A DNA stretch of 64,000 nucleotides from an uncultured Chloroflexota bacterium (GCA_913051545.1 CAJXCD010000006.1:3680-67679), one strand, 5' to 3'. Numbered from the stretch's first letter, positions 1,034-45,516 are shown. Numbers and translations: made by a program. Notes: generated from the sequence alone by a model not told the origin.

Positions 1034-2075
1034 CTAGTCCTCCCCAGTACCTAATCATTCGTATATCATCTATTGGTTTAATCTCATCGTCGCTAACGGG
1101 TATACCCATACTTTCACGGCATCCATAGTAGATGAAATTAAAGCCGGCAAATACTCCTGCAATCATTGTCCCTTGTACTCTTGGGTTGCACTCTAATAGG
1201 CAAGGAGTTCCTTGAGAATCCAGTTTAAATTGAAAACCCAATCCATATTTGAGTCGGAGTTTGTCGGTAAGTTGTAGTGACCATTCAATCAAATCTTTTC
1301 TCATATCAATTTCGGTTAGAAAACTTACACCACTCCTAATTTGAGTACGTATTCTAGGCACAGCCAATTTAACGTTTTCTCCGGCAAATACATCTACTGT
1401 GTATTCAATCCCGGGTAGATAATCAGATACGATTAAATCTGGGTAAGTGTTCGATGAAAGAATTACTAATAGATCATCTAAGGAAATTTCTGTGCCGGAT
1501 GGTTTTTCGGTTAGGAATCTATTTGTATCCCATCGGTTTTCAGTTACTATCCTGAATCCTCTTTGGCCATTCGAGTTTCGTGGCTTCACAACAAATCTGT
1601 TTTTTGGGTATCCAAAATCATTTGCGGCATCTCTCAAGTCTTTCTCACTGCTTACTAGTCTGTAGTTAGGACAGGGAATATTCATCTCACTGGCTAGGTT
1701 TAAAAGCATGAATTTGTCATTGGCTAAATGGATTGTGTCAGAGGGAGAAATTACTGAAAAAATCCCTTCATCTCTTAACATATTGGAAGCATTCGAGATT
1801 TTATCCAGCTCTGAGGTTACCTGTGGGAGAATTACGTCGATACGATTTTCCTTAGCTATTTCAACTAGTTTATTAATATATTCATCATTATCTGATACTG
1901 GGATAGTAGAAAAGGCGTCAGTCATATATCTTCCTACTGCATCATCGCGTGAATCAACGCCCATTACCCAGACATTTCTGTTGTCAGGGTTGGTTTTCAG
2001 CGCATAGATAGTTCCAGCTATTCCTGGTGCTCCGGCTCCAGTTACAATTACTCTGATATCTTTACTATTTGACAT
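996..2075 (-). CDS. ATP-grasp family ligase (carbamoyl-phosphate-synthase-like ATP-binding domain)
   Basis: 359 aa. Contains 'VIVTGAGAPGIAG', 'VVKPRNSNGQRGF', 'DYLPGIEYTVDVF' and 'LLECNPRVQG', which are typical ATP-grasp segments. Confidence 0.75.
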   Translation of the reverse strand: MSNSKDIRVIVTGAGAPGIAGTIYALKTNPDNRNVWVMGVDSRDDAVGRYMTDAFSTIPVSDNDEYINKLVEIAKENRIDVILPQVTSELDKISNASNMLRDEGIFSVISPSDTIHLANDKFMLLNLASEMNIPCPNYRLVSSEKDLRDAANDFGYPKNRFVVKPRNSNGQRGFRIVTENRWDTNRFLTEKPSGTEISLDDLLVILSSNTYPDLIVSDYLPGIEYTVDVFAGENVKLAVPRIRTQIRSGVSFLTEIDMRKDLIEWSLQLTDKLRLKYGLGFQFKLDSQGTPCLLECNPRVQGTMIAGVFAGFNFIYYGCRESMGIPVSDDEIKPIDDIRMIRYWGGLVANSKTTTSLRI

Positions 2076-2102
2076 GTGAAGGTTCCTTAAACAGTTGTAA
2101 CT

Positions 2103-2969
2103 TTATTGAATTGACCCATGTGATATTCGAACTATTCCGAGACCTCCTCCGGGATAAAAGTGATCTTTTGGTATTTCGAGCCAGGAGTAATAATCTTCGT
2201 CCAGTTCTTGAGCAAAATTCATTAGGGCCTCACTGTGGTGGGTAGTCGTAGATATGATAATACTTCCCTTGCGAAGTTTGTTGGAAATTATTTCGTATTC
2301 CTGTTGTTCGTGCACACTGTTTCTCACACTATCGTATATAAACAAATCTATCGATTTATCTATGCTAGACAAAGCTGATATAGAGTCATCGTTCAGAAAT
2401 TCTACGTGTTTGTCATACGGTGTTTCAATGAGCCAACCGGCTTCAGGGTTTATATCCACCGCTAAGATTTTTCCTTGTTCTCCTTCCTTTGCGGCATTAC
2501 TCATTAATGCCGCGGCTAAAGTGCATGTACCTAGTCCTTTATCTAGGCCAGTTTCTACGATGAGCTTTGGCTTACATATTCTTGTCACAGCGTACCACGC
2601 CACTCGCTGACCATATCTGACTTCTTTATCGGATACTGATTTATATTGGCTAGAGTTGGTTACTTCAGATATATGATTTCGCAGATTGATATCAGATTCA
2701 ATTTCGTCAAAATATTGCTCAACTGTAGTTCGGTCAACTTGTAGTGCGTGTGAAATTACGTACGCTAATTCCTTAATGTTGTGCCGTGGTAGATAGTAAG
2801 TGTGGTTAGTAATTTCCCGTGAATTTATTAGCCAGATCAGTATCTTCTTAGCTTGTGAATTTAGGTATCTTAAAGATAAGTAAAAACGGTAAATCGGGGC
2901 AATAATTCCAAGTAGAATCGCGTTATGTTTCACAAGTGATTTTAGGTTCATTTTATAGGGTTGATCCAC
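2103..2969 (-). CDS. class I SAM-dependent methyltransferase-like protein
   Basis: 288 aa. 'IVETGLDKGLGT' is a motif-I-like Gly-rich loop, with acidic 'ILAVDIN' and 'DLFIYDS'. The start is either GTG 2969 or ATG 2951. Confidence 0.6.
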   Translation of the reverse strand: MDQPYKMNLKSLVKHNAILLGIIAPIYRFYLSLRYLNSQAKKILIWLINSREITNHTYYLPRHNIKELAYVISHALQVDRTTVEQYFDEIESDINLRNHISEVTNSSQYKSVSDKEVRYGQRVAWYAVTRICKPKLIVETGLDKGLGTCTLAAALMSNAAKEGEQGKILAVDINPEAGWLIETPYDKHVEFLNDDSISALSSIDKSIDLFIYDSVRNSVHEQQEYEIISNKLRKGSIIISTTTHHSEALMNFAQELDEDYYSWLEIPKDHFYPGGGLGIVRISHGSIQ

Positions 2970-3062
2970 AGTATTTGCTATGGATACAGGTGATCCGCAA
3001 ACTGAAAAATTGTGTACTGTAAAGAGGAATACATTCTATATAACTATTCACTTAGTTGTCGA

Positions 3063-3854
3063 TCAATTTGGAATTGCTAGTTCATTTACACTGATTACAT
3101 TCTGCTGTGAGAGCCATTCACATAGGGATGAAAGTTTTGATCTGCAAGATAGAATCTCGTCCCACTCCCAAGTCCAATGCAGTGCTATCTGAGTAAGGTT
3201 ATTTGGTATTTCTATATCAGTATGGGCTTGATTAAGTATATTCCATGTTGCTATGCCGGCAGTGTAGTAGAGTCGGCGTAAGGTTTGATGCAGGCTATAC
3301 TCATTTTGACTGTTAGTGAGATGTGAAATTACATCTCTCGATAGTCCATATAAAGGTGGGGAAGCGTGAAGAAGTACAATTGGTGATCTGTAATGCCAAA
3401 CTTTGGGGAATGTACCGAAACATAGTTTAAAATTATCGATTGCAAGGGCTTTAAGTAAATTCAGGTCATATGAATTGCCCGGAGGTATAAAACATACAGT
3501 ATCATGTTCTCCTAGTAGATCCCTGCCAAGTTTTAGCAGTTCAAGGTTGTATTCAACTGTGTTACCAGTAAGCTCGTTAACAATTTTCCGAAAGCCTACT
3601 TTGCTTTGGTCGTGGTTTATTCCATGCATTCCAACTGTCATGTTGTGCCGGTTTCGCAAAAAAATATGATCTTCTGGTTCTAAAAGAGCAGGTACTATTG
3701 CTAGCATATATGGAATATTGTACCTTTCAAATTCATTAAGTATTTGATCTGCAAATTTGCGGTAATTATAGATTTTGTCTCTAACACCTGTGGGATAGTC
3801 GTCTATTCGTATTATGAATTTATGTTCTTTTGAATCTACCATGTTTATATCCAA
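3063..3854 (-). CDS. polysaccharide-deacetylase-superfamily protein (DUF2334-like)
   Basis: 263 aa. The pattern 'IIRIDDYP ... LAIVPALL ... GMHGINHDQ' resembles DUF2334/NodB-like predicted deacetylases. Confidence 0.55.
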   Translation of the reverse strand: MDINMVDSKEHKFIIRIDDYPTGVRDKIYNYRKFADQILNEFERYNIPYMLAIVPALLEPEDHIFLRNRHNMTVGMHGINHDQSKVGFRKIVNELTGNTVEYNLELLKLGRDLLGEHDTVCFIPPGNSYDLNLLKALAIDNFKLCFGTFPKVWHYRSPIVLLHASPPLYGLSRDVISHLTNSQNEYSLHQTLRRLYYTAGIATWNILNQAHTDIEIPNNLTQIALHWTWEWDEILSCRSKLSSLCEWLSQQNVISVNELAIPN

Positions 3855-10461: not shown

Positions 10462-12042
10462 TCAAAAGTTTCCTAACGAACGGGATTTTTGTTGATTTAA
10501 TTTGGAATATCTTGCAGCCGCTGCACATAGTCCAAGTAGCAAACAAGTAATTGTCATTCTACGCATGTCAAATAATGATATGGCTGTTATTGACCCAGCC
10601 AAGTTAATTATTAACACGCCCAGAGTTGAATGCCCAAAAATCGAAATCTCTAGAATAGGAGAGCGTATTGTATAAGTCGCTAGTCTAAATGCAGTAACCC
10701 AAAAAGCTATGTAAAGACCAATTCCAAGTAATCCGTTCCTTAATAGGATTAAGATCCATTCACTGTCTGCTACTCTTTCACCTAGTACTCTAATGTGTTC
10801 AGCTGATGTACCTTCTGAAGGTCCATCACCGAGAATTGGAGACCGTTTCAGTTGGATGGGTATAAGACTGATATTATCTAGTCTTGTCTGAACAGAAGAA
10901 TCGATTTGCCAGTCTATAGCCGCATTCAATCTCGAGACACGTTTCTCAATTATAGGACCGACTAGAGGTAATGATGATCCTGATAAAAAAATCAATGATA
11001 GCGACGATATTATAACCAATGAAATTATAATGCCTCGTTTTATCAAATCACCTCGGACTTTTTTTGGAATTAGCCCCCACCTTGGTATCAACAAAATAGT
11101 TACATAGTATATAGCTAGTGCAATAGTTCCTAACATAGCTGTACGAGAACCAGTAGATACAATTCCCAATAGTAGTAGCAAAATTAATCCTGGTTGAACT
11201 ATTAGTTGAATACCTCTGATTTTCCTTCTTGCTGCTAGTCCTAGAGCAACTGATAATCCGGTAGCAAGTAGAAGGCCATATTCGTTCGGATTAAGTACAG
11301 TACTGGCTGCTCTTGTTTGCAGTATAGAAAAGTGTTTTTCCATTGCTGCGCCAGTAGCAATACGAGGAGCTGCGTAATAGGAGCTACCAAACAGTTGAAA
11401 ATCCCAGAGGTTTAGGGACTGTGCGAAGCCAAACAATGCTGAAATTGCAATTGTTGCAACAAATATCTTGGATATAAAATGCAAACCATTTTTTTTGATA
11501 ATGGCTTGTGATCCAAGATAAAAGGCACATATGTAAAGGCCAAATTTGACCATTTCGAACCAGTCTCCTTTTGACAACGGTATTTGCAAAACAATGCTTC
11601 CGTATGCCATAGAAAGGAGAGTTAGTGGGATCAAAGCAATAAGTACAAAATAGAATTTCCTTCCCGGGATTATCAGCCGTTTCCCATGCCCTAAGATAGC
11701 ACGTAATATAAACATTCCGCCTATAATTAGAATCAAGATATCGTACAGGGTTGTCACAGGAAGTCTGATAGGAAAGGAATCAGACAACTGGATAGCAGGA
11801 GCAAGAATAAGTAGCGGTATCGCTATTATAATTGTACGTATAGAATTTAGACCTGATAAAGTTATCCACAAGGTAGTAGCTGTAATGATTGATACAAGTA
11901 GAACCACGAACTGCACGTCATTCGCTAGATTAGCTCCTACCCAATATATAAATACAGTGAGAAGTCCACCTACTAGTATTGTAGACAGTGTTTTGATTCC
12001 AGCTGATGAAGTTTTATCTATTGGATGAGAGTACATTTTCAT
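10462..12042 (-). CDS. O-antigen polymerase/ligase-like integral membrane protein (Wzy_C-type)
   Basis: 526 aa with at least 10 hydrophobic helices. The 'GIVSTGSRTAMLGTIALAIYY' segment resembles the Wzy_C/O-antigen-ligase signature. Confidence 0.75.
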   Translation of the reverse strand: MKMYSHPIDKTSSAGIKTLSTILVGGLLTVFIYWVGANLANDVQFVVLLVSIITATTLWITLSGLNSIRTIIIAIPLLILAPAIQLSDSFPIRLPVTTLYDILILIIGGMFILRAILGHGKRLIIPGRKFYFVLIALIPLTLLSMAYGSIVLQIPLSKGDWFEMVKFGLYICAFYLGSQAIIKKNGLHFISKIFVATIAISALFGFAQSLNLWDFQLFGSSYYAAPRIATGAAMEKHFSILQTRAASTVLNPNEYGLLLATGLSVALGLAARRKIRGIQLIVQPGLILLLLLGIVSTGSRTAMLGTIALAIYYVTILLIPRWGLIPKKVRGDLIKRGIIISLVIISSLSLIFLSGSSLPLVGPIIEKRVSRLNAAIDWQIDSSVQTRLDNISLIPIQLKRSPILGDGPSEGTSAEHIRVLGERVADSEWILILLRNGLLGIGLYIAFWVTAFRLATYTIRSPILEISIFGHSTLGVLIINLAGSITAISLFDMRRMTITCLLLGLCAAAARYSKLNQQKSRSLGNF

Positions 12043-13267
12043 ACACCTTAATGGTTTGGGTAGCTACATTGTTCCAAGCATACATGGCTGTAACATCCAT
12101 CTTGCCACGGTTCCCCAGTCTGGTAGAGAACTTGGTGTCATTTAGTAATCTTATTATAGCTTCGGCAAGTTGGTTAATTTCATCGATATCTACTAGAATA
12201 CCATTGTCACTGTCCCTGATCACATTTGTTATACCACCTGCTCGGGATCCAATAACGGGTTTCCCGCATGCCATGGCTTCAAGTAGAACCATCCCCATAC
12301 CCTCTGCTCTTGATGGCAAAACGAGTACATCGGAAACGTTGTACCAAAGGTTAAGTGTTGGATCATGACGCGAATTCATCTCGCCCAGAAATTTGACCCT
12401 TCCGTTTGGTAGTAGTCTGTTGGCCATATCTAAAATGTCCTTGTACCATCTAATATCCGTATCTGAGACCTTCCCTCCAACTATATACAATGTTGCTTGA
12501 GGAATGGCTTCACATACTTTTGAGAAGGATTTAATGAGCCAATCTATCCCCTTACGTCTGATTAGGTTTCCTACAAAAAGTACGTTTAGTTGTTCGGGTG
12601 GCACTTTTAAAGATATACGTGCATAATTTTTGTCTTCAGGTTTAAAATAGTCAGTATCTACCCCATTTGGTATAACTAGTATTTTGTCTTTTTGAACGCC
12701 ATAAGTAATGGCTTCATTTTCTAGATAATTTGAAACACATATAATTCCTTCAGGGTATATTAAGCTTGGGATCACTTGTTCTGTAAAAAGTTTGTCTGGC
12801 ATGTGTCCTCTTAAGCTATGTAAAGTTGCAATTAGAGGAACTCCAAGTGCCTTGGAGGCCATGTGTGATGCTAATAACCCTAGTCCACCGCCATGAACGT
12901 GAACTATATCTGGTTGGACTTTGTCGAGGAATATTAGGTATCTTGATGCGAGAGAGATTAATGCAATTCTTTCGCGTATAGACATAGAGTTGAAATTTGT
13001 TGGAAATGTATTTCTAAAGCGGGACAAGTTTCCCATGATATATTTGGCACACGCTATGCTTCTATTTGGAACGGATGAGTAGATATTGTAATTGTCAACT
13101 TCTCTATGAAATGTCATTTTCGCAGTAGTGATATTTTGTGCTAGTACTGACACTTTTATTCCAATGTCGGCTAGATTTTTTGATAGTTGGGCAGTGTGGA
13201 TTGAAATTCCCCCCGTTTCAGACCCACCAAGATGTTTAGGTAAGCTACCTATCATTGCAATATTCAT
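12014..13267 (-). CDS. glycosyltransferase, GT4 family
   Basis: 417 aa. Contains 'PSRAEGMGMVLLEAMACGKPVIGSRAGGITNVIRDSDNGILVD' (E-x7-E). Confidence 0.9.
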   Translation of the reverse strand: MNIAMIGSLPKHLGGSETGGISIHTAQLSKNLADIGIKVSVLAQNITTAKMTFHREVDNYNIYSSVPNRSIACAKYIMGNLSRFRNTFPTNFNSMSIRERIALISLASRYLIFLDKVQPDIVHVHGGGLGLLASHMASKALGVPLIATLHSLRGHMPDKLFTEQVIPSLIYPEGIICVSNYLENEAITYGVQKDKILVIPNGVDTDYFKPEDKNYARISLKVPPEQLNVLFVGNLIRRKGIDWLIKSFSKVCEAIPQATLYIVGGKVSDTDIRWYKDILDMANRLLPNGRVKFLGEMNSRHDPTLNLWYNVSDVLVLPSRAEGMGMVLLEAMACGKPVIGSRAGGITNVIRDSDNGILVDIDEINQLAEAIIRLLNDTKFSTRLGNRGKMDVTAMYAWNNVATQTIKVYENVLSSNR

Positions 13268-13313: not shown

Positions 13314-15320
13314 CTAATCTATAAACTTTCTTAACCAAAGTTCTAAGTCCATCCAGCGCCATATTGCAAAGGAATGGTCTTGTTTGCCAGTCATATGTTC
13401 ATTTAAATATTCTTTAACCATGTCATGGTTAAAGAAATGCCTAGACGAGAAGCTTTCTGAAATTACTAGATTTTCTACTAATCCTTTTAATTTGCCACGA
13501 AACCAAGTGTCTTCTGGTGTATTGAATCCAATCTTATCCTGTCGATGATTGACAATGTTTGGCAGTAGGTCTTTCATTGAGTCTCTTAAAATCACCTTAG
13601 TGGTTCCATGAGATATCTTGGTGTCACTAGGTGTTGAGAACAGCCACTCTACCAATCTGTGGTCGAGGAAGGGCAACCTAGATTCAATTGAATGAGCCAT
13701 GGAATTGTGATCTTCGAATCTGAGTAAAGGAGGCAGTCCTGTGAAGAAACTTCTGTATAGACTTTGATGGAAAGGATCTGTTCTTACTACGGTGGAGTCA
13801 TATCGGTCAAGATTTCTATATGTTTTTGAGAAATCCTGTGATATCCAAGGAGATTGCTTTTGTCGGACTGCCATTTTTATGTGTTTTTGGAGTGATGATG
13901 GCAGTAGGGATAAGCTGGTTCCAGAAACTATTTCTATCCAAGGATTTCCGTGAATTGTGTGAAGGTTAACGGATTCTCTGACAAAACGTTTGACCATCAT
14001 TTTTCTTGCAAGAGACGCTAGGTGATTATGATGGAATCCCTGGTATCCTCCTAGGGATTCATCTCCTCCCTGGCCGTCAAGCATGACCGTTACTCCCTCT
14101 TCCCGAGCCTTTCTAAATACTTCCCACTGGGCAAACACACTGCTTGACCCAAACGGTTGTCCTTGATGCGAGACGATTTCTCCTAGCGAATCTACAAGGG
14201 ATTGATCTGTAGGTTGAACCGAGTAGGCATTCACTCCTGTATGTGACACCACTGCATCTATATAGGTGCTTTCATCGTATTTAGTTTCGGCAAAATCTTT
14301 GAATCGTGCTGAAAAGACTTTTTGAAGCGTTGCAGTACCTTTTTTGCCGTGTTTTATTAGGTGGTTCACCATACAAACTATTGATGATGAATCTAGTCCT
14401 CCGCTTAGGCAAGCACCAACAGGGACGTCACTGATTAGCCTCAGGCGTACCGAATCTTCGAATATATCAAAAAACTGAGATGTATATTCACTCGGGGTTA
14501 GATCTAAATCGGTAGTTCCTAGTGGGATATCGTAATAACGGTATTGAGATATAGTTTCAGATTCTAGATCCAGTTCTATTGCACAGCCTCCAGGCAACTG
14601 GTTTATTCCATCAAAAAAAGTTCCTTCACTATGATCTATCCTGGAATAGACTAGATAGTCATGTATGATAGATTCATTAGGAGTGGCTGTTACGTATCCT
14701 GAAGCTAGTATAGCGTTTATTTCAGATCCAAAAACAAAGGTGTTACCATTCCAAAAATAGAATAGTGGTTTTATGCCGAATCGGTCTCTGCTACAAAAAA
14801 CTCGTTTTGTGGTAGTGTCCCATATTACAAATGCCCACATTCCGATAAATTTCTGTATGCACTTGGATCCCCATTCCTGGTAGGCGTGGAGAATGACTTC
14901 AGTATCAGTGTCAGAGTAAAAAATATGTCCAAGTTGTTGTAGTTCAGATCGGATTTCCAAGAAATTGTACACTTCTCCGTTGTGTACTATCCAAATAGTT
15001 TTTTCTGGATTACACATAGGTTGATGGCCTGCTTCTGTCAAATCAATTATCGCAAGTCGACGATGGGCCAGAGCTATGTTGTAATAGTCAGATGATGGGT
15101 GTTCTATATCCCCTGTTGGAGAGTATGGTAGCTGACTATGTATTACTTTGTTGGATGTGTTTGGCCCTCTTACAGATTTGAAGAAACCGTTCTCGGAGTT
15201 ACCTAAGAGGTATCCTTCATCATCAGGTCCTCTGTGCTCGATTACATTGGCCATTCGAAGGACCATAGCTGAATCCAGTTTTTTTCCGGAAAACGATACG
15301 ATACCGGCTATGCCACACAT
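13314..15320 (-). CDS. asnB: asparagine synthase (glutamine-hydrolysing) family amidotransferase, WbpS-like
   Basis: 668 aa. 'MCGIAG' provides the N-terminal nucleophile Cys, and 'LSGGLDSS' is the PP-loop. Confidence 0.92.
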   Translation of the reverse strand: MCGIAGIVSFSGKKLDSAMVLRMANVIEHRGPDDEGYLLGNSENGFFKSVRGPNTSNKVIHSQLPYSPTGDIEHPSSDYYNIALAHRRLAIIDLTEAGHQPMCNPEKTIWIVHNGEVYNFLEIRSELQQLGHIFYSDTDTEVILHAYQEWGSKCIQKFIGMWAFVIWDTTTKRVFCSRDRFGIKPLFYFWNGNTFVFGSEINAILASGYVTATPNESIIHDYLVYSRIDHSEGTFFDGINQLPGGCAIELDLESETISQYRYYDIPLGTTDLDLTPSEYTSQFFDIFEDSVRLRLISDVPVGACLSGGLDSSSIVCMVNHLIKHGKKGTATLQKVFSARFKDFAETKYDESTYIDAVVSHTGVNAYSVQPTDQSLVDSLGEIVSHQGQPFGSSSVFAQWEVFRKAREEGVTVMLDGQGGDESLGGYQGFHHNHLASLARKMMVKRFVRESVNLHTIHGNPWIEIVSGTSLSLLPSSLQKHIKMAVRQKQSPWISQDFSKTYRNLDRYDSTVVRTDPFHQSLYRSFFTGLPPLLRFEDHNSMAHSIESRLPFLDHRLVEWLFSTPSDTKISHGTTKVILRDSMKDLLPNIVNHRQDKIGFNTPEDTWFRGKLKGLVENLVISESFSSRHFFNHDMVKEYLNEHMTGKQDHSFAIWRWMDLELWLRKFID

Positions 15321-26975: not shown

Positions 26976-28031
26976 CTAGTCCATTGGTGCTAAATCGGTT
27001 TCAGACAGGAACGAATCTATCGATATGTCTCGAACTAGTGTACGTCCGATAATCTTGTGTAAATTTGAAGCTGGAATACCAATTCCCGGTTTTTTAAGAG
27101 ATAAATGTTTTTCTTCTAGTAAAGTTCCAGACTTAAGGTCATTCCGCGCGACAATACTCTTTGTAAAAGTTCTACGCAATTCACTAAGTTCATTAGCTTT
27201 CAAATCTTTGTTTACTGGATGTTCTGTCACAGTTTCTATGTACCTGACTCCATCTACAAGTTGTCGGAGTTCCTGGGTTGTTATTGATGACGGTATGTCA
27301 GGACCAAAAAGATGTCTACTCAAAGTGACATGTACCTCAAGCACGTCAATTCCAATAGTAGCTGCACTTAGTCCGGCATACACTTTCCCTGAATGATCGG
27401 ATAGCCCCACGGCACAATTATACCTACTGCGGTATTCAGATATCACGTTCAACCCAATTTCTTCTGGCACACTTGGGTATGCAGAGGTGCATTGTAGAAT
27501 TGCTAAACCAACGCCACTTGCTTTTATGAGATTAACAGAAGCATCTATCTCTTCAAAAGTACTCATTCCAGTTGAAAGGATAATCGGTATCCCCGTTTCT
27601 GACATAATTTTTAGCATAGGAAGGTTGTTTGTTTCTCCAGAACCAACTTTCCATGCAGCAACTCCAACTTTTGTTAATAAGTCAACTGCTTCGATTGAAA
27701 ATGGGGTACTCATAAAGGCGATGTCACGATCCTCAGCATGGCTTTTCAGTCCGTGCCATTGATCCAGTGTAAATTCCATCCGTTTCCAATACTCATATCT
27801 AGTGTCGTCCTGTTTACTGAATTTAACGCGCCAAGGTTCTGAGGGCGTACTTTCAGCGCTTGCTATATGGGTTTGGAATTTCACAGCATCAGCACCTGCG
27901 TCAGCTATTGCGTCGATAAAAGCATGAGCTAGTCCCAGGCTACCATCATGATTTTGTCCGACTTCTCCTATAATGAAGCATGGGTTACCAATTTTGAACG
28001 GGATATTTACTGTTTGATCTTGAGTGGACAT
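26976..28031 (-). CDS. NeuB-family nonulosonic acid synthase (module 1), with C-terminal SAF-like extension
   Basis: 'PCFIIGEVGQNHDGSLGLAHAFIDAIADAGADAVKFQTH'. I prefer ATG 28031, which has GGTGA 5 nt upstream, over the listed 28055. Confidence 0.9.
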   Translation of the reverse strand: MSTQDQTVNIPFKIGNPCFIIGEVGQNHDGSLGLAHAFIDAIADAGADAVKFQTHIASAESTPSEPWRVKFSKQDDTRYEYWKRMEFTLDQWHGLKSHAEDRDIAFMSTPFSIEAVDLLTKVGVAAWKVGSGETNNLPMLKIMSETGIPIILSTGMSTFEEIDASVNLIKASGVGLAILQCTSAYPSVPEEIGLNVISEYRSRYNCAVGLSDHSGKVYAGLSAATIGIDVLEVHVTLSRHLFGPDIPSSITTQELRQLVDGVRYIETVTEHPVNKDLKANELSELRRTFTKSIVARNDLKSGTLLEEKHLSLKKPGIGIPASNLHKIIGRTLVRDISIDSFLSETDLAPMD

Positions 28032-28041
28032 ATAATCACCA

Positions 28042-28917
28042 TCAAATTTTACCAATATATTTTCTAGGGTGCATTACAGTAGCAATCGAACTGGTTATTG
28101 GTCGTAGCTTTGGTTTACGATAGCCTAGTCTCATAAGCCCCTTGCTAAGTATACGTCTGTTCAAACGTCTGTTGAGACCATTAGTAGATAATTTCCAAGT
28201 CGAATCATATATAGAGTATCCAGATGCTATTTTGCCAGAAAGTTCACGATTCCTTTTAATTTCAGGTCCATTCCATATCCAATCAGTGCCCCCTGGAACT
28301 GATTCCCACCCGTGGTTCTGGTGAAACACTTTTGATACTTCAGTGGCGTCTATAGTTGGTACTCCCTTCGACAGAGCACCGTATATTAGCCACTCATCCC
28401 AGCAACCTCTACCGATTGCGAATGGTGGTATAGATGGCCATGTACCTTTAGTGAAAGCAAAGTAATCCATACCTTGGCGCAAATCACTTTCTAAGGATTG
28501 TATTTTGTATATTTCTTTCCAGGTGGTCTGGTTACTGAAATCAAATTCAGTATCTATATTAATACCCCATGATAGGCCTACCATAAGGAAAGGTTGTTTT
28601 TTAATTGATTTCAAGGCAAGTATGAAATCTTTAGTGAGTATTATATCTGCGTTTACGTAAACAATAATGTTATTAGATGCTGAGATCTCAGCAGATTCAA
28701 ATAAAGAATTTACCAAAGGGGTTCCATGCTCATTACATAGTACGTCAGGAACATGCTTGACCCCAAAGTCTGCGGCACATTGAGATGTACCCTTATCATC
28801 ACCGATTAATATCACCTCTACATCTGGATCTAGATTTACCCAACTTGATATTGCATTTCGTTGGATAACTTCGAATTTGTTTACGAAAGGCCTAGGAGTA
28901 GTAAATATAGTGATCAT
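28042..28917 (-). CDS. putative GT-A-like glycosyltransferase of an uncharacterised family
   Basis: 'MITIFTTPRPF..IQRNAISSW ... VILIGDDKG ... YVNADIILTKDF'. I chose ATG 28917, which sits 1 nt after the upstream TGA, instead of the overlapping 29019 start. Confidence 0.45.
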   Translation of the reverse strand: MITIFTTPRPFVNKFEVIQRNAISSWVNLDPDVEVILIGDDKGTSQCAADFGVKHVPDVLCNEHGTPLVNSLFESAEISASNNIIVYVNADIILTKDFILALKSIKKQPFLMVGLSWGINIDTEFDFSNQTTWKEIYKIQSLESDLRQGMDYFAFTKGTWPSIPPFAIGRGCWDEWLIYGALSKGVPTIDATEVSKVFHQNHGWESVPGGTDWIWNGPEIKRNRELSGKIASGYSIYDSTWKLSTNGLNRRLNRRILSKGLMRLGYRKPKLRPITSSIATVMHPRKYIGKI

Positions 28918-33531: not shown

Positions 33532-34401
33532 TTAAGTTCGGCGTAGCTTTTTCATGACAGATCTTTCACTATCATATACCCGTTTTACCCCGTCACCCAT
33601 AGCGGATTCTATGACACGGATATCTCGTACGAGTCGGTGTAGTCCCTGAGGTTCTATCGATGCTGACTGGTCAGAACCCCACATCGCCCTATCCAGAGTA
33701 ATGTGACGTTCTACGAAGCACGCCCCTAGTACAACGGCTGCAATAGTAGTTTGTAGCCCCGTCTCGTGTCCTGAATATCCAATAGGGCAGTCAAATTTGT
33801 TTTGGAGAGACTTAATGGTATTAAGGTTGAGTTCTTCTGCCGGACACGGATAGGTGCTTGTACAGTGACATATGACCAAATTATCTTTGTCTAGTAGTGA
33901 TACAGCATGATCTATTTGGTCCATAGTTGACATACCTGTGGAAATTATAATTGTCCTTTTCGTTGAATGTAATTTTGTTAAGAGGCTGTCATCAGTTAAG
34001 CATGCTGATGCTATTTTGTACCCAATTGGTTCAAATTGCTCCATGAAGTCTACGGATTCTTCATCCCAACAAGAACTGAACCAAGAGATATTATTTTCCT
34101 TACAATATTTGTCTATTTCATGGTACTCTTGTTTTCCGAATTCCACCTTGTGCCTGTAGTCAATGTAGGACATGATTCCCCAAGGTGTTTCACGTGGAAT
34201 GTCGCGTTGTTCGGGGGGGACACAAAGTTCAGGGGTCCTTTTTTGAAATTTTACAGCATCACAATTAGCTGAAACGGCAATGTCAATCAATTGCTTCGCT
34301 ACGTTGATATCGCCATTGTGGTTTATGCCTATTTCAGCAACTATATAGGTAGGAATACCTTCCCCTATAATTTCTTTCCCCCAATTGACTTTGTTGCTCA
34401 C
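33532..34401 (-). CDS. NeuB-family synthase (module 2), short form without SAF-like C-terminus
   Basis: 289 aa. Contains 'PTYIVAEIGINHNGDINVAKQLIDIAVSANCDAVKFQKR'. It ends about 60 aa earlier than the other two NeuB homologues. Confidence 0.85.
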   Translation of the reverse strand: MSNKVNWGKEIIGEGIPTYIVAEIGINHNGDINVAKQLIDIAVSANCDAVKFQKRTPELCVPPEQRDIPRETPWGIMSYIDYRHKVEFGKQEYHEIDKYCKENNISWFSSCWDEESVDFMEQFEPIGYKIASACLTDDSLLTKLHSTKRTIIISTGMSTMDQIDHAVSLLDKDNLVICHCTSTYPCPAEELNLNTIKSLQNKFDCPIGYSGHETGLQTTIAAVVLGACFVERHITLDRAMWGSDQSASIEPQGLHRLVRDIRVIESAMGDGVKRVYDSERSVMKKLRRT

Positions 34402-39058: not shown

Positions 39059-40018
39059 TTAGTTGGAGGAATCAAAGCTTTTACCGTTCCATCTTATTGC
39101 CAGATCGTATAATTCGATATTCTTGATCGGTTTCCCATCTCCAATTTGAATAGAATTACATATCAGAATTCCACCCTCAGCTGCAATTGCTAGTCCCGTT
39201 GTAGGATTGGATCCATGGGTCCGATAGGGTCCTATTATTGCGCCGGGTTTATGGCGTGTATCCTTTCCTGTTTCAAGGATGCCAACATTCCACAGAAAAA
39301 TTTTTTCACCTTCCATCTTTGTGAATGCTCCAGGGAAAGGTGAAGTGACACCTCTTACCAAATTATAGATATCTTGGATAGGAGTAGACCAGTTTATAAA
39401 TCCATCTTCCGGCTTACGTGTTGGCCAGTAGCTTGATGATGAGTGATCTTGCGGTAATTTAGGTAAAGTCCCTTTTTTTAGTTTGGGTAGCATTTCTTTT
39501 ACGAGGTCGCAAGATATTTCCCCGACTCTATCTACTAAGGTTTGGGCATCGTCAAATTTAGATACAGGGAACGTTCTTTGAGATACGATGTCACCTTCGT
39601 CGGCTCCTGAAGTCAGCCAAAAGAGAGTGACTGCCCCCTCCGTTTTCCCTTTGATTAATGTCCATGGTATGGGAGCTCTCCCACGTCCTTCAGGCAGTTT
39701 GGTCATATGCAGACCTAAGGTTCCATATCTGGGCAACGAATATATGGATTTGTTTACTAATTGGCTCCATCCGAACACCATCATCCAATCAGGATCCGCA
39801 TTTTTTACAATTCTTTCCACTTTTGGACTATTAATGTCTGTAGTTTCTGTAAGAGGGAAATGGTATTCATTGGCAAGATGATCGAAAGAACAGTAGTTAC
39901 TGCGATAATGTTGAGAAGGTGGGTATCCGAAGACATGACAAGGTATTTCATTGGAGTCGCAGAGTGTTTCTAATATTTTTGCACTGATTGTCATACCGCC
40001 TACATATACTATTTTCAT
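39059..40018 (-). CDS. formyltransferase (Fmt/ArnA-N-like), probable sugar N-formyltransferase
   Basis: 319 aa. 'LGLHMTKLPEGRGRAPIPW' is a variant of H-x-S-L-LP-x-x-RG. The N- and C-terminal formyltransferase domain layout is present. There is an ATGA overlap with the sulfotransferase gene. Confidence 0.8.
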   Translation of the reverse strand: MKIVYVGGMTISAKILETLCDSNEIPCHVFGYPPSQHYRSNYCSFDHLANEYHFPLTETTDINSPKVERIVKNADPDWMMVFGWSQLVNKSIYSLPRYGTLGLHMTKLPEGRGRAPIPWTLIKGKTEGAVTLFWLTSGADEGDIVSQRTFPVSKFDDAQTLVDRVGEISCDLVKEMLPKLKKGTLPKLPQDHSSSSYWPTRKPEDGFINWSTPIQDIYNLVRGVTSPFPGAFTKMEGEKIFLWNVGILETGKDTRHKPGAIIGPYRTHGSNPTTGLAIAAEGGILICNSIQIGDGKPIKNIELYDLAIRWNGKSFDSSN

Positions 40019-41244
40019 TTGGAAGCTAGCTCTCTATTAGAGATAGATACGGATTGTCTTATTACTTCGAAAAAGTCAGTGTCCAGAAAAAATGCTTTCT
40101 GAATCGAATCGGGTACTGGTTGAGATGAGTGAAGAATGGAAGAGCGCAACAATTCCAAAGAGATGTCGCTGACTTTTGACTCGCCATTAACTTGTGAATA
40201 CGGTCTTATCCAGGTAGCAAGGTCTTTTACATCCACTTCTGGTGAGTCAAACATTAGGCTTAGGGGTACTCTAGAAGTGGATGCTATGTCTGGTTGATAG
40301 CCAAATATTTCCATTTCGGGATAGCATAAATGTTCGATGAACTGTATTTCAGGACTCGTCAGCGCATTTTTCCACCTATCGATCGAATCTAGGTTGAAAG
40401 AGCGTGTAGCTTGAAAATTTTGGTAAGATGAATTCTGACTCCATTTACTTCCGGTCCCATCTACAAAAGTATTTGGATCTATCATTGATGGATCGAAGTT
40501 CATATTCAAGAAATCACAAACCTTTTTTGCTTCCATTTCCGGGTCTGAAACTAATTGCTCATATTTAAGTAATAGAACTCTGTCAGATGTGTTTGGGGAT
40601 TTATACACGCTTTGCCACGCTAGTGTGGCTAATTTTCTCCATTGCCGAATTAGAAATAACCATGGATATTTTTCTTGTACACTTTGTTGACTGTTCTTTG
40701 AAGCGCAGATTGCTCGTGGGTCTCTCATTACGTGGATAACCTTTGCTTCCGGGAAACTTTCAAGAATGTGATTGGCGAATTCTCCAGCCCATGTAACTTT
40801 GAAGCCAACAGTGTGTGAGGTGGTCTGTCCATAGGCTTTTTGAACAATATCGAATCCGGAATCTATCAATTCCACGTAGTTGCAGCCATTTAGCTGGTCC
40901 AAAAACGGTTCTATTTTGGGTGATATGGGACGTAAGAAATGAGCGATTCGTTTTCTGAGGTTAGGCATTTCCGACTGGTCTTTAGTTAAATCAAACGATG
41001 TTTGCTGAATGGCCTTTAGAACAGATTGTTTTTCAGGGTAGTAGTAGTAATCGTCTAAAGGGGCTTCAGGGTCGACGGTATAGCCTGGTACGAGATTAGA
41101 AGCTACGTCATTACGAAACTCTTTAAACAAGGGTATGTATGGATCCACTGCACAGCACGCTTTAGAGTGGGCCTGAAGCATTCTGGCCAAGAGGGTAGTA
41201 CCAGAACGGAACATACCAGTTATGAAGACGGGTTGATAAGTCAT
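40015..41244 (-). CDS. PAPS-dependent sulfotransferase family protein
   Basis: 409 aa. 'FITGMFRSGTTLLARML' is the 5'-PSB loop and 'VIHVMRDPRAICASK' is a 3'-PB-like motif. Confidence 0.8.
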   Translation of the reverse strand: MTYQPVFITGMFRSGTTLLARMLQAHSKACCAVDPYIPLFKEFRNDVASNLVPGYTVDPEAPLDDYYYYPEKQSVLKAIQQTSFDLTKDQSEMPNLRKRIAHFLRPISPKIEPFLDQLNGCNYVELIDSGFDIVQKAYGQTTSHTVGFKVTWAGEFANHILESFPEAKVIHVMRDPRAICASKNSQQSVQEKYPWLFLIRQWRKLATLAWQSVYKSPNTSDRVLLLKYEQLVSDPEMEAKKVCDFLNMNFDPSMIDPNTFVDGTGSKWSQNSSYQNFQATRSFNLDSIDRWKNALTSPEIQFIEHLCYPEMEIFGYQPDIASTSRVPLSLMFDSPEVDVKDLATWIRPYSQVNGESKVSDISLELLRSSILHSSQPVPDSIQKAFFLDTDFFEVIRQSVSISNRELASK

Positions 41245-41349: not shown

Positions 41350-42417
41350 CTACTCGTTGTATCGCAGAAACATATCCCAAGATAAAGGTTCGTCATCTTC
41401 TATATCACGTATAGCAGTAGCACCTATTACTACATCCATTAGTTCTGTAGGTATTCCTGTGCCAGGTCTTTTCACTGCGATCTTTTCCTCGGTAACCAAC
41501 TCACCAGCATTTATTGGCGTAGCGGCGCATAGACTGCGTCTTCCAACGTCTTTCATTGCCTGCTCAGCAGGTGTACTAATTTTTCTTGGACTACCTAGTA
41601 CCATTTCTATGAAATCTCTTGCTTGTACGAGTGAATCGAGCTGGTCTGGAGTAAGCGAGAAGTGATGGTCAGGCCCTGGTAGGCTCTGGTCGACAGTGAT
41701 GTGTTTTTCTATCATGTTTGCCCCGATAGAAATAGCAACTTTGGACACGTCAATGCCAGGGGTGTGATCTGAGAACCCCACTGGACGTCCAAAAGCCGCC
41801 TTCATTGTCGGTATAGCTTTCAAGTTTACATCTTTAGGGTCAGTAGGGTAATTTGAGACACAATGGAGAAGAATGATTTGGTCGTTTCCTGTTTCCGTTA
41901 TTGTATTTATTGCTTTCTCAATATCACCCAGAGTCGACATTCCAGTGGACAGCACAATAGGCTTGCCTGTCTCACCCACACGCCTTATTAGTGGGAAATG
42001 GGTCATTTCGAACGATGCTATCTTGAAAACAGGAACATCAAATTCTTCCAGTATTCCTACATCTTCTATTCCAAATGGAGTCGACATAAAAGGGATCCCG
42101 ACTTCATGACAATATTCAACTACGGCTGGTTGAATTTCATACGGGAATTCTGTGGCTTGTATAAGGTCGAACATTGTTGCATCGTCGCCCACTTCCATAC
42201 GAGAACGGAAATGTTCCATCATAGGAGTTTTTTTTGAGTACATCTGCTCTGCTTCGTAGGATTGGAATTTCACAGAGTCTGCATTTGCATGAACTGCCAT
42301 GTCCACAAGTTGCTTCGCAAGATCCAATTGTTGGTTGTGATTACATCCCGCTTCAGCAATTATAAAACTAGGATTGCCGTCACCCACTACTCGCTGGCCT
42401 ATGCTAACGGTTTTCAT
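41350..42417 (-). CDS. NeuB-family synthase (module 3; PseI-like by context), with SAF-like C-terminus
   Basis: 355 aa. Contains 'PSFIIAEAGCNHNQQLDLAKQLVDMAVHANADSVKFQSY'. Confidence 0.9.
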   Translation of the reverse strand: MKTVSIGQRVVGDGNPSFIIAEAGCNHNQQLDLAKQLVDMAVHANADSVKFQSYEAEQMYSKKTPMMEHFRSRMEVGDDATMFDLIQATEFPYEIQPAVVEYCHEVGIPFMSTPFGIEDVGILEEFDVPVFKIASFEMTHFPLIRRVGETGKPIVLSTGMSTLGDIEKAINTITETGNDQIILLHCVSNYPTDPKDVNLKAIPTMKAAFGRPVGFSDHTPGIDVSKVAISIGANMIEKHITVDQSLPGPDHHFSLTPDQLDSLVQARDFIEMVLGSPRKISTPAEQAMKDVGRRSLCAATPINAGELVTEEKIAVKRPGTGIPTELMDVVIGATAIRDIEDDEPLSWDMFLRYNE

Positions 42418-43177: not shown

Positions 43178-43918
43178 TTAGGTTCCATAGTTTACATGAC
43201 TTTCCCAGTCAGGGTTTCTTCCTTTGAGGACTGTATTCAAGGTATTTGGTCCTTCATGGAATATCAGATCTATTATAGATAGGTAAGGAGTGAATTCACG
43301 GTTTGCCACGTCATATGTGGGGTGGGTATAGTTTTGGAATACAAATGAAACATTTCGACTATGGAATTTCGACGGATCAATATATCCCTTCGATCCATTG
43401 TTAGCTAGGTAAGTTGTGGCGTCCAACCTGGCACAAATTTCAGCCAGCTTATCATCTCGTTCAAATCCAACATTCAAATCCGAGCTTAATATAAGATTGT
43501 CTGACATTCCAAGTTTTTTATATATCCATTTTATAAGAGTAAGATTTAATTCCACTAGGTAGGTCCAATGGCTTTCTAGAATTTCGGTCAATTCGTCACG
43601 GTAATGCTGAAACCAAGGTGACTGACGGTAAACGTGGTCAATAGATTTAATAATGCGTGATTGCCATGGTGTGTCGTAACTGATTTCGACTTGATTGATC
43701 TTCACTTGCTGGGACGATTTTTTGGTAGGTATACTAAGCCACATCCACCCTCGGTCTGAAGAATCTGGTATTCGATTTCTGTTGACCCATTCCCGTCGAG
43801 GAAATTGGACGTCGTCAAGCATTACATACACATCGGATCTGTGTCCCATCTCTAAGTATCCGAGCCAGGGCAGAAAATTCGGTTGGCAAATTGCAACAAT
43901 TTTCTGGGATGTTTTCAA
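43178..43918 (-). CDS. WbqC-like family protein (function unknown)
   Basis: 'IVAICQPNFLPWLGYLEM' is the typical WbqC opening. I prefer TTG 43918, which forms a TTGA overlap with the radical-SAM stop, over the listed 43984 and over ATG 43960. Confidence 0.65.
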   Translation of the reverse strand: MKTSQKIVAICQPNFLPWLGYLEMGHRSDVYVMLDDVQFPRREWVNRNRIPDSSDRGWMWLSIPTKKSSQQVKINQVEISYDTPWQSRIIKSIDHVYRQSPWFQHYRDELTEILESHWTYLVELNLTLIKWIYKKLGMSDNLILSSDLNVGFERDDKLAEICARLDATTYLANNGSKGYIDPSKFHSRNVSFVFQNYTHPTYDVANREFTPYLSIIDLIFHEGPNTLNTVLKGRNPDWESHVNYGT

Positions 43919-45516
43919 TCTCCCATACTGGCAACAACTTTTTCGTAGCCCATCTTCCATGGAGTTCCTGCCCAGTCTTTGCAACTTTTACACACTCTTT
44001 CATCCGGAATTTCGTCGTTTAGGTGTTCCATCCTGTTCATCCAGTAGTGGTGGCTGTGCCATGCATTGTGCACAGAAGTTTGATCCATAGATCTGTAAGC
44101 GGTTTTCTGCTGCCAGTCGATTGGACATGCTTTTAGAACGCCTTGATGGTTTATAACGACCCGTCGGAAGAAATGTACGCAGGGCCACCTGTGATCCCAG
44201 CCTGCAAATTCACTTTCCGAAGTTGCCACAAGTCCTACGTTCGAAATCATTTCTCGGATTAACACTTCATCTACAATGGGTGTCCAATAATTTACAAAAT
44301 CATCCAGTTCATGAATATTGGCACCTTGTTTTACGAAGCTGACCATAATTTTTGTTGATGCACCCAGTTCATCACGAATTTTTATGAATTCGTGAACACT
44401 TCCAACCACCTTGTCCCACTTTAGCCCTGTTCTAACAACCTCGAATGTTTCTGGAGTAGATGCATCAAGGGAGAAGTCTACCATGAATAACCCGGCCTCT
44501 ATGAGCTTGCGTATCCTGTCTGGTTTAAGTAGTGAGCCATTCGTTGTAAGCCCAACCGGTCCTACACCTTTTTCTTTCGCATACTTAACCATATCTACGA
44601 GCTGCTTATGTACTAGAGGTTCTCCGTCTGCAGTAATACGGACAAATTGTATTTTGTGTTCTGAGCACTCATCTATGACTTGTTTATATGTCTCCATGCT
44701 AAGGTGCCCTCGTTCTGATAGGAAATCTGGCTTTCCTCCGTTAAGGTTTGTTAGAGATTGAGGGCAATGGATACACTTGGCATTACATATATTGATGATA
44801 TCGAACATTATGTAGGTTGGGAACTCTGCACACTCTGGAGATTCAAACCCGTACGCTGCAGGCATTTTCCTTTCATCGACTCGTAGAGCTGTAACATCAG
44901 GTTGGTAAAGGGGAGCATCTTCTCCTGCTTTTTTAGCAATGGACAAGAATCCACCCAAACCCCATTTGGTCTTACCATTGCTGTTTTCAACCAGTAGACG
45001 AAGTGAAGGTGAATCCCTGCTGTCCAGAAGAGTGTCCTCATAAGGCGTTTGATGAACCATGTCGTAATGAAACTTGAATTCTGAGGGATTGGATTGGATA
45101 TGATTTATACAATCCTTCGGTGAGTTAAACACTTCCTGTTCTAATACCCTTGTGGAAATTGCTCTCACTCCAATTCCAACTGGTAGCCGGCAGTGTTCCC
45201 ATTGGGTAAAGTAGTCTATTTTTTGTGGACGGAAAGATTTCAGACCTTCGGATACGATTTGTTGGTCTAAAAAGATCTGGTTACTATCCACCAATACCAG
45301 AGAGTCTGCTTCCACTGATTCTGCAAATTGAACTAGTGCGTTGAAGTCATCAAATCGTTTTGTTTCAGCATGTGTGTGGATACTATTTGGATCCCACACC
45401 ACCGATTCAAAACATATCTCACTTAGTTTTTCCAGAAAGCGACTTTTCTCCCACAGGTGCGTAACGCTAATATCGGAGCCACTCATGTCTAGAACTAGAA
45501 GGTTTTTGTCTGTCAC
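43915..45516 (-). CDS. radical SAM protein with ~230-aa N-terminal extra domain and Cys-rich (SPASM/twitch-like) C-terminus
   Basis: 533 aa. CX3CX2C 'CNAKCIHC' lies at aa 244-251. The C-terminus reads 'CVHFF...CPIDW...CKSCKDW'. The GTG start is preceded by AGAGGTGA. Confidence 0.8.
   Translation of the reverse strand: MTDKNLLVLDMSGSDISVTHLWEKSRFLEKLSEICFESVVWDPNSIHTHAETKRFDDFNALVQFAESVEADSLVLVDSNQIFLDQQIVSEGLKSFRPQKIDYFTQWEHCRLPVGIGVRAISTRVLEQEVFNSPKDCINHIQSNPSEFKFHYDMVHQTPYEDTLLDSRDSPSLRLLVENSNGKTKWGLGGFLSIAKKAGEDAPLYQPDVTALRVDERKMPAAYGFESPECAEFPTYIMFDIINICNAKCIHCPQSLTNLNGGKPDFLSERGHLSMETYKQVIDECSEHKIQFVRITADGEPLVHKQLVDMVKYAKEKGVGPVGLTTNGSLLKPDRIRKLIEAGLFMVDFSLDASTPETFEVVRTGLKWDKVVGSVHEFIKIRDELGASTKIMVSFVKQGANIHELDDFVNYWTPIVDEVLIREMISNVGLVATSESEFAGWDHRWPCVHFFRRVVINHQGVLKACPIDWQQKTAYRSMDQTSVHNAWHSHHYWMNRMEHLNDEIPDERVCKSCKDWAGTPWKMGYEKVVASMGD

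Follow-up and report, generated by a model that had tools for sequence, protein, structure and literature searches.

Nonulosonates (NulOs) cap the surface glycans of bacteria and archaea and govern their phage, immune and adhesion interactions, and the decorations known from prokaryotes include acyl, amidino, methyl and formyl groups. A pair of genes at positions 39059 to 41244 of a 64,000-nucleotide stretch of DNA from an uncultured Chloroflexota bacterium (GCA_913051545.1 CAJXCD010000006.1:3680-67679), hereafter the window, points to one more decoration, sulfate. The pair consists of a gene for a sulfotransferase (ST) and one for a protein of formyltransferase fold (FT), and it lies within a module for NulO biosynthesis. 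An initial annotation of this DNA suggested that the two genes make an N-formylated and O-sulfated sugar, possibly a NulO. The joint reading favoured here is O-sulfation, dependent on 3′-phosphoadenosine 5′-phosphosulfate (PAPS), together with N-formylation of a 5,7-diamino NulO, and we put its probability at about 0.5. The stronger point, overlooked by that annotation, is not the pair but the ST family itself, which occurs in at least eight phyla and is linked to NulO clusters. The enzyme type is already known, while the acceptor class, which is predicted, and the ST family are new.

With regard to sulfation, the literature has listed it for animal NulOs only (Kleikamp et al., PMC8157484), and the animal sialate:O-sulfotransferases were themselves identified only in 2022. 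These enzymes, WSCD1 and WSCD2, depend on PAPS, carry a 5′-phosphosulfate-binding (5′-PSB) loop and a 3′-phosphate-binding (3′-PB) motif, and sulfate N-acetylneuraminic acid (Neu5Ac) at O-8 (Ertunc et al. 2022, PMC9304399). Their likeness to ST is at the level of the superfamily. WSCD1 and WSCD2, which occur in deuterostomes only, are WSC-domain proteins of type II in the Golgi membrane and act on glycan-bound sialic acid (PMC9304399), whereas ST is soluble, bacterial, 409 amino acids (aa) long and encoded within a biosynthetic operon. No description of other NulO sulfotransferases was found in the literature searched, nor any report there of sulfated prokaryotic NulOs or of a sulfotransferase tied to gene clusters for pseudaminic acid (Pse), legionaminic acid (Leg) or other NulOs.

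The closest solved folds belong to other described enzymes. The tyrosylprotein sulfotransferases TPST1 and TPST2 and the CurM and OLS sulfotransferases (3ap1, 5wrj, 4gbm, 4gox) have in common with ST an xRSGTT 5′-PSB loop, an RDxR...S 3′-PB motif and the position of an acidic base. They differ from it in their acceptors, protein tyrosine or a beta-hydroxyacyl-acyl carrier protein, and are 14-18% identical to ST; the ST family is found in sugar operons.

For the second gene the closest described systems are ArnA and PseJ. PseJ, the N-formyltransferase of UDP-4-amino-4,6-dideoxy-AltNAc, sets an example of a formyltransferase that takes the place of PseH in a Pse pathway. The formyltransferase domain of ArnA and PseJ (6ci2) have a two-domain fold and the His and Asp of the catalytic triad, as FT does, and a folate loop to which that of FT corresponds in part. 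FT is unlike them in having a glycine, Gly102, across its whole clade and in its frequent PIG-L deacetylase partners.

A related chemistry has been observed in Candidatus Kuenenia stuttgartiensis, where CMP-NulOs were detected in which one amine is formylated and the other free; they were traced to a Leg-type cluster which has, between neuB and the early genes, a deacetylase and a formyltransferase (SugarBase preprint, 10.64898/2026.04.20.719630). No sulfotransferase is reported for that cluster, whereas Brocadia relatives do have an ST homologue (loci L025 and L026). The composition filter of SugarBase dropped formulas with both N and S (10.64898/2026.04.20.719630), so sulfated NulOs would have been invisible to that survey. 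In a study of granular sludge, NulOs and sulfated glycoconjugates were both measured, and sulfotransferases were not found by BLAST (PMC10483923); the ST family is a candidate source of the sulfated glycoconjugates that chemical measurements have shown in extracellular polymeric substances from anammox and granular sludge.

The sulfotransferase and its family

Both open reading frames (ORFs), their coordinates and the short overlap between them proved to be exactly as first annotated. The same applies to the two ST motifs quoted at that time: FRSGTTL corresponds to residues 12-18 and RDPR to residues 174-177. The features of the pair and of ST, with conservation taken from a family alignment of 29 ST members, are:

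40015..41244, minus strand: sulfotransferase gene (ST) encoding 409 aa, of the PAPS-dependent type (Sulfotransfer_3)
39059..40018, minus strand: formyltransferase-fold gene (FT), ArnA-like, encoding 319 aa and belonging to a clade that has Gly for the catalytic Asn
40015..40018, minus strand: ATGA overlap of the ST stop codon (TGA) and the FT start codon (ATG), read as 'tcat' on the plus strand
41194..41217, minus strand: codons of the 5′-PSB loop, GMFRSGTT, residues 10-17, at least 90% conserved
41143..41145, minus strand: codon of Asp34, candidate catalytic base, invariant
40699..40725, minus strand: codons of the 3′-PB motif, RDPRAICAS, R174-S182, with R174, D175, P176, R177 and S182 invariant

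The assignment of ST to the sulfotransferases is borne out by Pfam, where it scores 97.2 bits on Sulfotransfer_3 (PF13469; cut-off 27) and 57.9 bits on Sulfotransfer_1 (PF00685; cut-off 22), and on alignment its PAPS-binding and catalytic-base positions are intact. In phmmer alignments GMFRSGTT falls on PRSGTT of TPST2, with R13 on R78; Asp34 falls on the second Glu of the TPST2 stretch 'CGEET', and the 3′-PB motif on 'VRDGRASVHS'. By our own count that Glu is E99, which we take to be the catalytic base of TPST2, and R174 and S182 presumably answer to R183 and S191. Asp34 is the putative base of ST, at the position of TPST2 Glu99 and of the CurM-ST Glu, with Asp instead of Glu. Likewise invariant or nearly so (n=29) are K149, E155 and an RQWRK motif.

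The fold tells a similar story. The AlphaFold (AF2) model of ST (pLDDT 92, pTM 0.92) has TPST2/TPST1, OLS-ST (4gox) and CurM-ST (4gbm) as its top Foldseek matches, and the probability is 1.00 for TPST1/2, OLS-ST, CurM-ST, Stf9 and SULT2A1. After TPST1/2, OLS and CurM come Stf9, Stf1, Stf0 and the cytosolic SULTs, both in phmmer searches of the PDB sequences and in Foldseek. The model also displays the helical C-terminal extension of the ST family, of ~90 residues (about 320-409). Judged from sequence and model, ST looks active, with a TPST/CurM-like fold.

The public gene call of ST (P0003, 399 aa) begins at Met11, the affected stretch being 41215-41244. The 409-aa start at 41244 is preferred here because a start at Met11 loses a beta-strand, conserved in the homologues, that precedes the P-loop/PAPS loop.

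How widespread is this enzyme? Within its own genome, ST is the sole match to Sulfotransfer_1 or Sulfotransfer_3 (PF00685, PF13469). No orthologue was found in 40 relatives of the same order, which gave one weak partial match only, so the gene is patchy and appears to have been acquired horizontally. Far beyond that order, a profile search covering 1.84 billion cluster representatives (50% identity) returned at least 761 members of the ST family at E <= 1e-30, nearly all of 380-420 aa; the nearest relative is only 50% identical to ST. The hosts belong to Chloroflexota, Planctomycetota (including the anammox Brocadia), Pseudomonadota, Spirochaetota, Bacteroidota, Omnitrophota, Thermodesulfobacteriota and Lindowbacteria, and the ST tree is out of step with taxonomy.

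The gene neighbourhoods were counted over 22 ST-bearing loci from GTDB genomes (L010-L031), scored with the proteins of the window. NeuB lies no more than 10 kb from the ST homologue in 19 of them, and the three loci without it are contigs of 13.5, 7.8 and 4.6 kb. A gene of the DUF4910/DUF2172/M28-like (CA_C2195) type stands immediately beside ST in 20 of the 22, and also in the metagenome contigs L004-L007 (e.g., L004:8001-10534); it precedes or follows ST, and the codons often overlap. These two neighbours are constant, while the remainder of each cluster varies. Since a DegT aminotransferase is near ST in most loci, the sugars concerned would mostly be diamino NulOs. A family locked to NeuB clusters in this manner predicts a new, strongly anionic modification of NulOs.

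The usual neighbours of ST, the CA_C2195 or DUF4910-DUF2172 proteins, were already known from NeuB-containing sugar operons. Das et al. solved the structure of CA_C2195, in which the peptidase catalytic residues are missing, and proposed from the NeuB-containing neighbourhoods a role in the biosynthesis of modified sugars (PMC4000134). In the main text of that paper no mention of 'sulfotransferase' was found (PMC4000134). Structurally solved and functionless so far, the DUF4910 family gains a concrete partner enzyme in ST.

The family is also tied to the supply of PAPS. In four of the 22 loci (L020, L021, L027 and L029) a kinase of adenosine 5′-phosphosulfate (APS) lies within the cluster; L021 (10001-15131) has, in addition, an ATP sulfurylase directly after DUF4910, and in Leptospira ainlahdjerensis (L029:8013-11131) the gene order is APS kinase-DUF4910-ST. 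A natural fusion protein of 606 aa (P0438) joins an APS kinase (residues 3-154, 139.7 bits) to a full-length ST (residues 192-584) and thereby makes a Rosetta-stone link between the ST family and PAPS. The use of PAPS by the family, as well as a function within NulO biosynthesis, is therefore a prediction supported by gene context.

As for the genome at hand, tblastn agrees with the initial annotation that the window contains no PAPS-synthesis gene. That annotation had advised a look for sulfate-activation genes elsewhere in the genome, and one such gene is present: an ORF of 594 aa on contig C8 (C8:49255-51039) encodes a Sat-CysC fusion, that is, an ATP sulfurylase (275.7 bits) joined to an APS kinase (211.8 bits). 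It adjoins the gene of a sulfonucleotide reductase (G000:C8:49255-51893, outside the window), which carries a Cys-Cys pair, a CxxC motif and a C-terminal ECGIH. We take the CC...CxxC pattern to be the signature of the APS reductases with an Fe-S cluster. If the reductase is of this type, sulfate assimilation would proceed without need of PAPS, which suggests, by analogy with mycobacteria, that the APS-kinase domain would mainly feed sulfotransfer. The genome also has two genes of the Inositol_P family, which are not diagnostic of CysQ. Its GyrB is nearest, among the named matches, to 'SAR202 cluster bacterium' and 'Chloroflexi bacterium' (about 69% identity), and some of the other matches bear Tara Oceans gene-call labels, so the genome most likely comes from a marine member of the Chloroflexota.

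Within the region of the pair, all genes are on the minus strand. Of the 52 gene-to-gene junctions in the window, counted with the longest-ORF starts, 14 show an overlap of at least 1 nt; the 4-nt overlap of ST and FT is ordinary for the window and indicates tight operon packing only. No minus-strand terminator-like site was found, and the promoter-like matches are fewer than the shuffle expectation; an internal promoter or terminator cutting the pair off from the operon was rejected for these two reasons. A recent insertion of ST, judged by composition, was likewise rejected, as there is no signal: GC (0.413) and GC3 (0.388) resemble those of the neighbours. Because the terminator-like site is lacking and the composition is uniform, ST and FT are taken to be made from one operon.

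The module and the formyltransferase

The window is occupied by a single long glycan island of 55 kb on the minus strand, with many sugars and glycosyltransferases. It contains aminotransferases, methyltransferases, glycosyltransferases, a Wzy_C protein and a Wzm/Wzt ABC exporter, together with three NeuB paralogues and four CMP-transferase genes (CTP_transf_3 matches), and these last two sets imply several different NulO or ulosonate products. The genes that concern the pair are:

26976-28055, 33532-34401 and 41350-42417, minus strand: three NeuB paralogues, mutual identity about 32-35%
41350..42417, minus strand: NulO synthase of the NeuB family, with a SAF domain and lying 105 nt upstream of ST; Pfam NeuB 285.7 bits
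42438..43175, minus strand: CMP-sugar cytidylyltransferase; CTP_transf_3 82.3 bits
45556..47698, minus strand: LegB/RmlB-like short-chain dehydrogenase/reductase (SDR) and DegT; Epimerase 195.6, GDP_Man_Dehyd 183.3 and DegT 434.3 bits
37921..38955, minus strand: PseG-like nucleotide-sugar hydrolase, which has a GT28 C-terminal fold and lies 103 nt downstream of FT; Glyco_tran_28_C 31.5 bits
37162..37878, minus strand: PIG-L family de-N-acetylase, two genes downstream; Pfam PIG-L 99.5 bits

The two flanking genes named at the outset are both there, NeuB upstream of ST and the PseG-like gene downstream of FT. The description of the module as pseudaminic-like, however, is not established. NeuB favours the NeuB/LegI-type model (TIGR03569, NeuB_NnaB, 363.9 bits) over PseI (307.1 bits), with both scores below cut-off, the SDR is RmlB/Gmd-like, and the PseG-like protein reaches 89.8 bits on TIGR03590, below the cut-off of 153.55. 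The canonical Pse pathway is not matched either: the dehydratase candidate is not of the PseB type (Polysacc_synt_2), PseG and PseI stay below their equivalog thresholds, and the Pfam scan found no PseH/LegH-type (GNAT) acetyltransferase in the module. By sequence, the SDR and DegT are predicted to perform the early steps to a 4-amino-6-deoxy sugar. The product is probably a NulO of the 5,7-diamino type. NulOs of this type have free hydroxyls at C4 and C8 only.

With regard to FT, conservation was taken from an alignment of 27 members, including two fmt-like outgroups, and the active-site features are:

39680..39715, minus strand: FT active-site stretch GLHMTKLPEGRG, G102-G113, with Gly102 in the place of ArnA Asn102 and His104 kept
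39599..39601, minus strand: codon of Asp140, invariant, aligned with ArnA D140 ('ADAG')

The initial call of FT as a formyltransferase stands in part. The loop HMTKLPEGRG is present (residues 104-113), and Pfam finds Formyl_trans_N (56.2 bits) and Formyl_trans_C (58 bits), but the catalytic Asn is replaced by Gly102. The best sequence match of FT is ArnA (phmmer 1.2e-37), with PseJ at 3.3e-11, and its AF2 model (pLDDT 94.9) matches the formyltransferase domain of ArnA (2bln) in Foldseek with a TM of 0.86/0.92 and an rmsd of 2.2 Å. When GTLGLHMTKLP of FT is set against GAFNLHGSLLP of ArnA, Asn102 of the triad is found to be Gly in FT, which retains His104 and Asp140.

This replacement belongs to a clade. 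In the alignment Gly102 is at least 90% conserved and His104 and Asp140 are invariant, with Asn only in the two fmt-like outgroups; bona fide fmt and ArnA-like genes of other genomes have N-x-H. Compared with HxSLLPxxRG, the loop HMTKLPEGRG keeps His, LP and RG and has Thr-Lys for Ser-Leu; the consensus of the clade is HPTxLPEGRGRAP. The clade also has a motif of its own, GWSQ(L/I), with Gln86 clade-specific, and some members (P0142, P0147 and P0155) carry an N-terminal extension of ~110 aa. To judge from these alignments, the Gly clade is clearly under selection. Nonetheless, because Gly102 breaks the Asn-His-Asp triad, the formyltransferase label is less secure than the motif implied. The clade offers a natural experiment on how essential the catalytic triad is.

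Where else do such genes occur? Loci L008 and L009 hold a syntenic module without ST, in the order radical-SAM (rSAM)-WbqC-SDR-CMP-transferase-NeuB-FT-PseG-like, and NeuB and FT are neighbours in L034. PIG-L...FT is found in a FucNAc-type cluster of Pseudoalteromonas (L035), and a Gly-type FT stands beside PIG-L on a 3.7-kb Brocadiaceae contig (L044); Gly-clade members are therefore near PIG-L deacetylases in the window, L035 and L044. One member, in L033, has no sugar-pathway context. In the present module the amine-acceptor context for FT consists of the DegT aminotransferase and the PIG-L deacetylase.

A conserved ST-FT pair was considered and rejected. By tblastn an FT homologue is near ST in only one of the 22 loci, and this sole match, in Leptospira (L029), is weak, of the Asn type and 10 kb away.

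Proposed chemistry and its alternatives

In the reading favoured here, ST and FT would be transcribed together and serve as tailoring enzymes in one of the three NulO modules of the window. ST would be an active, soluble, PAPS-dependent enzyme that sulfates the 5,7-diamino-type NulO of its module, most simply at O-4 or O-8, and its substrate could be the free sugar or the CMP-sugar or else the sugar after transfer; PAPS would come from the Sat-CysC fusion on the other contig. FT would be an N-formyltransferase dependent on formyl-tetrahydrofolate, and two routes are conceivable for it. It may formylate, PseJ-like, the DegT-made 4-amino group of the nucleotide-hexose precursor, replacing PseH/LegH, or it may restore an acyl group to the amine that the nearby PIG-L deacetylase uncovers. 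The end product would be a sulfated, N-formylated NulO on a surface glycan, exported via the Wzm/Wzt system of the locus. What the analysis shows are the domains, motifs and folds, the arrangement of the operon, the presence of PAPS genes and the linkage of the ST family to NeuB clusters and to genes of PAPS synthesis; we infer the acceptor, the sulfated position, the stage of sulfation and the activity of FT despite Gly102. Of the N-formylated, O-sulfated NulO first suggested, the NulO context holds, but O- versus N-sulfation is not decided by sequence, with PIG-L close by.

Several points weigh against this reading. The acceptor is a prediction from the gene neighbourhood alone. The PAPS genes lie on another contig, and their tie to the locus hangs on the binning of a metagenome-assembled genome of 1.86 Mb, 31 contigs and 92% completeness. 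DUF4910, the almost constant neighbour of ST, gives no tblastn match in the window or in the whole genome; FT sits in its usual slot, and the usual partner reaction would be missing here. Since ST and FT are not together elsewhere, the combination of N-formyl and sulfate would be specific to this genome. FT has Gly at the position of the catalytic Asn102 of ArnA, and N102 mutants of ArnA are nearly inactive. Lastly, the absence of reports may reflect either the novelty of the modification or its non-existence.

Is the sulfate, then, on oxygen at all? An amine of the NulO might be freed by a de-N-acetylase (PIG-L in this bacterium and Brocadia, possibly DUF4910 elsewhere), and ST would convert that amine into a sulfamate by a logic like that of the animal heparan N-deacetylase/N-sulfotransferase (NDST), leaving the other amine to FT. 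PIG-L is two genes downstream here, it occurs near ST in seven of the 22 loci, and it lies directly upstream of ST in L004, L005, L011 and L016. The module has no PseH-type acetyltransferase, which makes a free amine plausible, and free-amine CMP-NulOs are those observed in Kuenenia (10.64898/2026.04.20.719630). Moreover, DUF4910 has been lost twice on the ST tree, in the lineage of the window and in Brocadiaceae, and both of these DUF4910-less lineages have PIG-L nearby. This complementarity is suggestive but weak: it comes from two lineages, and with PIG-L in roughly 1/4 of the DUF4910 loci the chance of it is about 0.07. In the other 15 loci PIG-L is absent within 10 kb, and we know of no bacterial sugar N-sulfotransferase of the ST family. 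As to DUF4910, Das et al. did consider the role of a sugar-amide deacylase, but the metallopeptidase catalytic residues are lacking (PMC4000134). N-sulfation is on balance unlikely, and so is the wider scenario built on it, in which a dedicated, horizontally mobile ST family of ~400 aa, as a rule accompanied by DUF4910, gives rise to sulfated NulOs in prokaryotes and, in this bacterium and in anammox bacteria, which have PIG-L and no DUF4910, NDST-like N-sulfation yields an N-formylated sulfamate NulO. If true, such a sugar would represent a class never described. Less probable again is the idea that ST acts on another component of the glycan, such as a hexose, a hexuronate or a lipid or protein anchor, and that its position in the NulO module is incidental. 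NodH, NoeE and Stf0 are bacterial carbohydrate sulfotransferases with hexose-type acceptors; ST has a weak match to NoeE in NCBIfam (40 bits), and the 55-kb island is rich in other sugars and glycosyltransferases. The constancy of NeuB and DUF4910 in 19 and 20 of the 22 loci, across at least eight phyla and amid genes that vary, speaks against an incidental position.

The structural relatives of ST invite two further explanations. OLS-ST (4gox) and CurM-ST (4gbm), the nearest bacterial structures by sequence and fold, install sulfate as a leaving group, and an activating sulfation of this style would serve the remodelling of the NulO and leave none in the final glycan; DUF4910, whose chemistry is unassigned, accompanies most members of the family as an obligate partner. 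However, ST and CurM-ST share only about 18% identity, and there is no thioesterase or polyketide synthase (PKS) context: no such domains were found in the scanned ORFs of the window, five ORFs at 55.6-63.7 kb being outside the scan. The genome is, moreover, without DUF4910, so that the follow-up enzyme would be missing, and this explanation is very improbable. Least credible is a TPST/RaxST-like tyrosine sulfotransferase that acts on a peptide or protein, as TPST1/2 as top fold matches might suggest, given an identity of only 14-18% and neighbours that, here and in 22 other genomes, are all sugar-pathway genes, with no peptide-precursor or peptidase-transporter genes seen among them. The nature of FT is a separate matter, independent of the readings of ST. 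Its Gly clade may use the folate/formyl scaffold for another reaction, or FT may be a non-catalytic partner: one of the three family-defining catalytic residues is replaced, with a conservation of at least 90% where the outgroups keep Asn, and the GWSQ(L/I) motif is peculiar to the clade. Yet His104, Asp140 and the LPxGRGRAP loop are invariant or nearly so, the ArnA fold is matched at 2.2 Å, and conservation throughout a deep clade argues that the enzyme is active. The pairing with PIG-L also resembles the deacetylase and formyltransferase of the Kuenenia cluster, whose enzyme is not confirmed as a member of the Gly clade. A function other than N-formylation is rather unlikely.

Further genes at the sulfotransferase loci

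Some other genes at or near the ST loci are of note. In Brocadiaceae (L025:8726-10618 and L026:11476-13581) two radical-SAM/SPASM genes come after ST, and next NeuB, a CMP-transferase and WbqC; this arrangement echoes the rSAM-WbqC pair located upstream in the window (43178-45516).

A family of ~377 aa without a Pfam match is absent from the window and recurs near the ST-DUF4910 pair in nine loci. In L029 it is found at 11128-12261, with a paralogue at 13629-14873, and the other loci are L027, L028, L018, L015, L013, L017, L019 and L030. L029 also encodes, between NeuB and the CMP-transferase of its ST-bearing NulO cluster (1572-3563), a protein of 663 aa that combines an FAD/NAD(P)-binding domain with a cupin of the cysteine-dioxygenase type.

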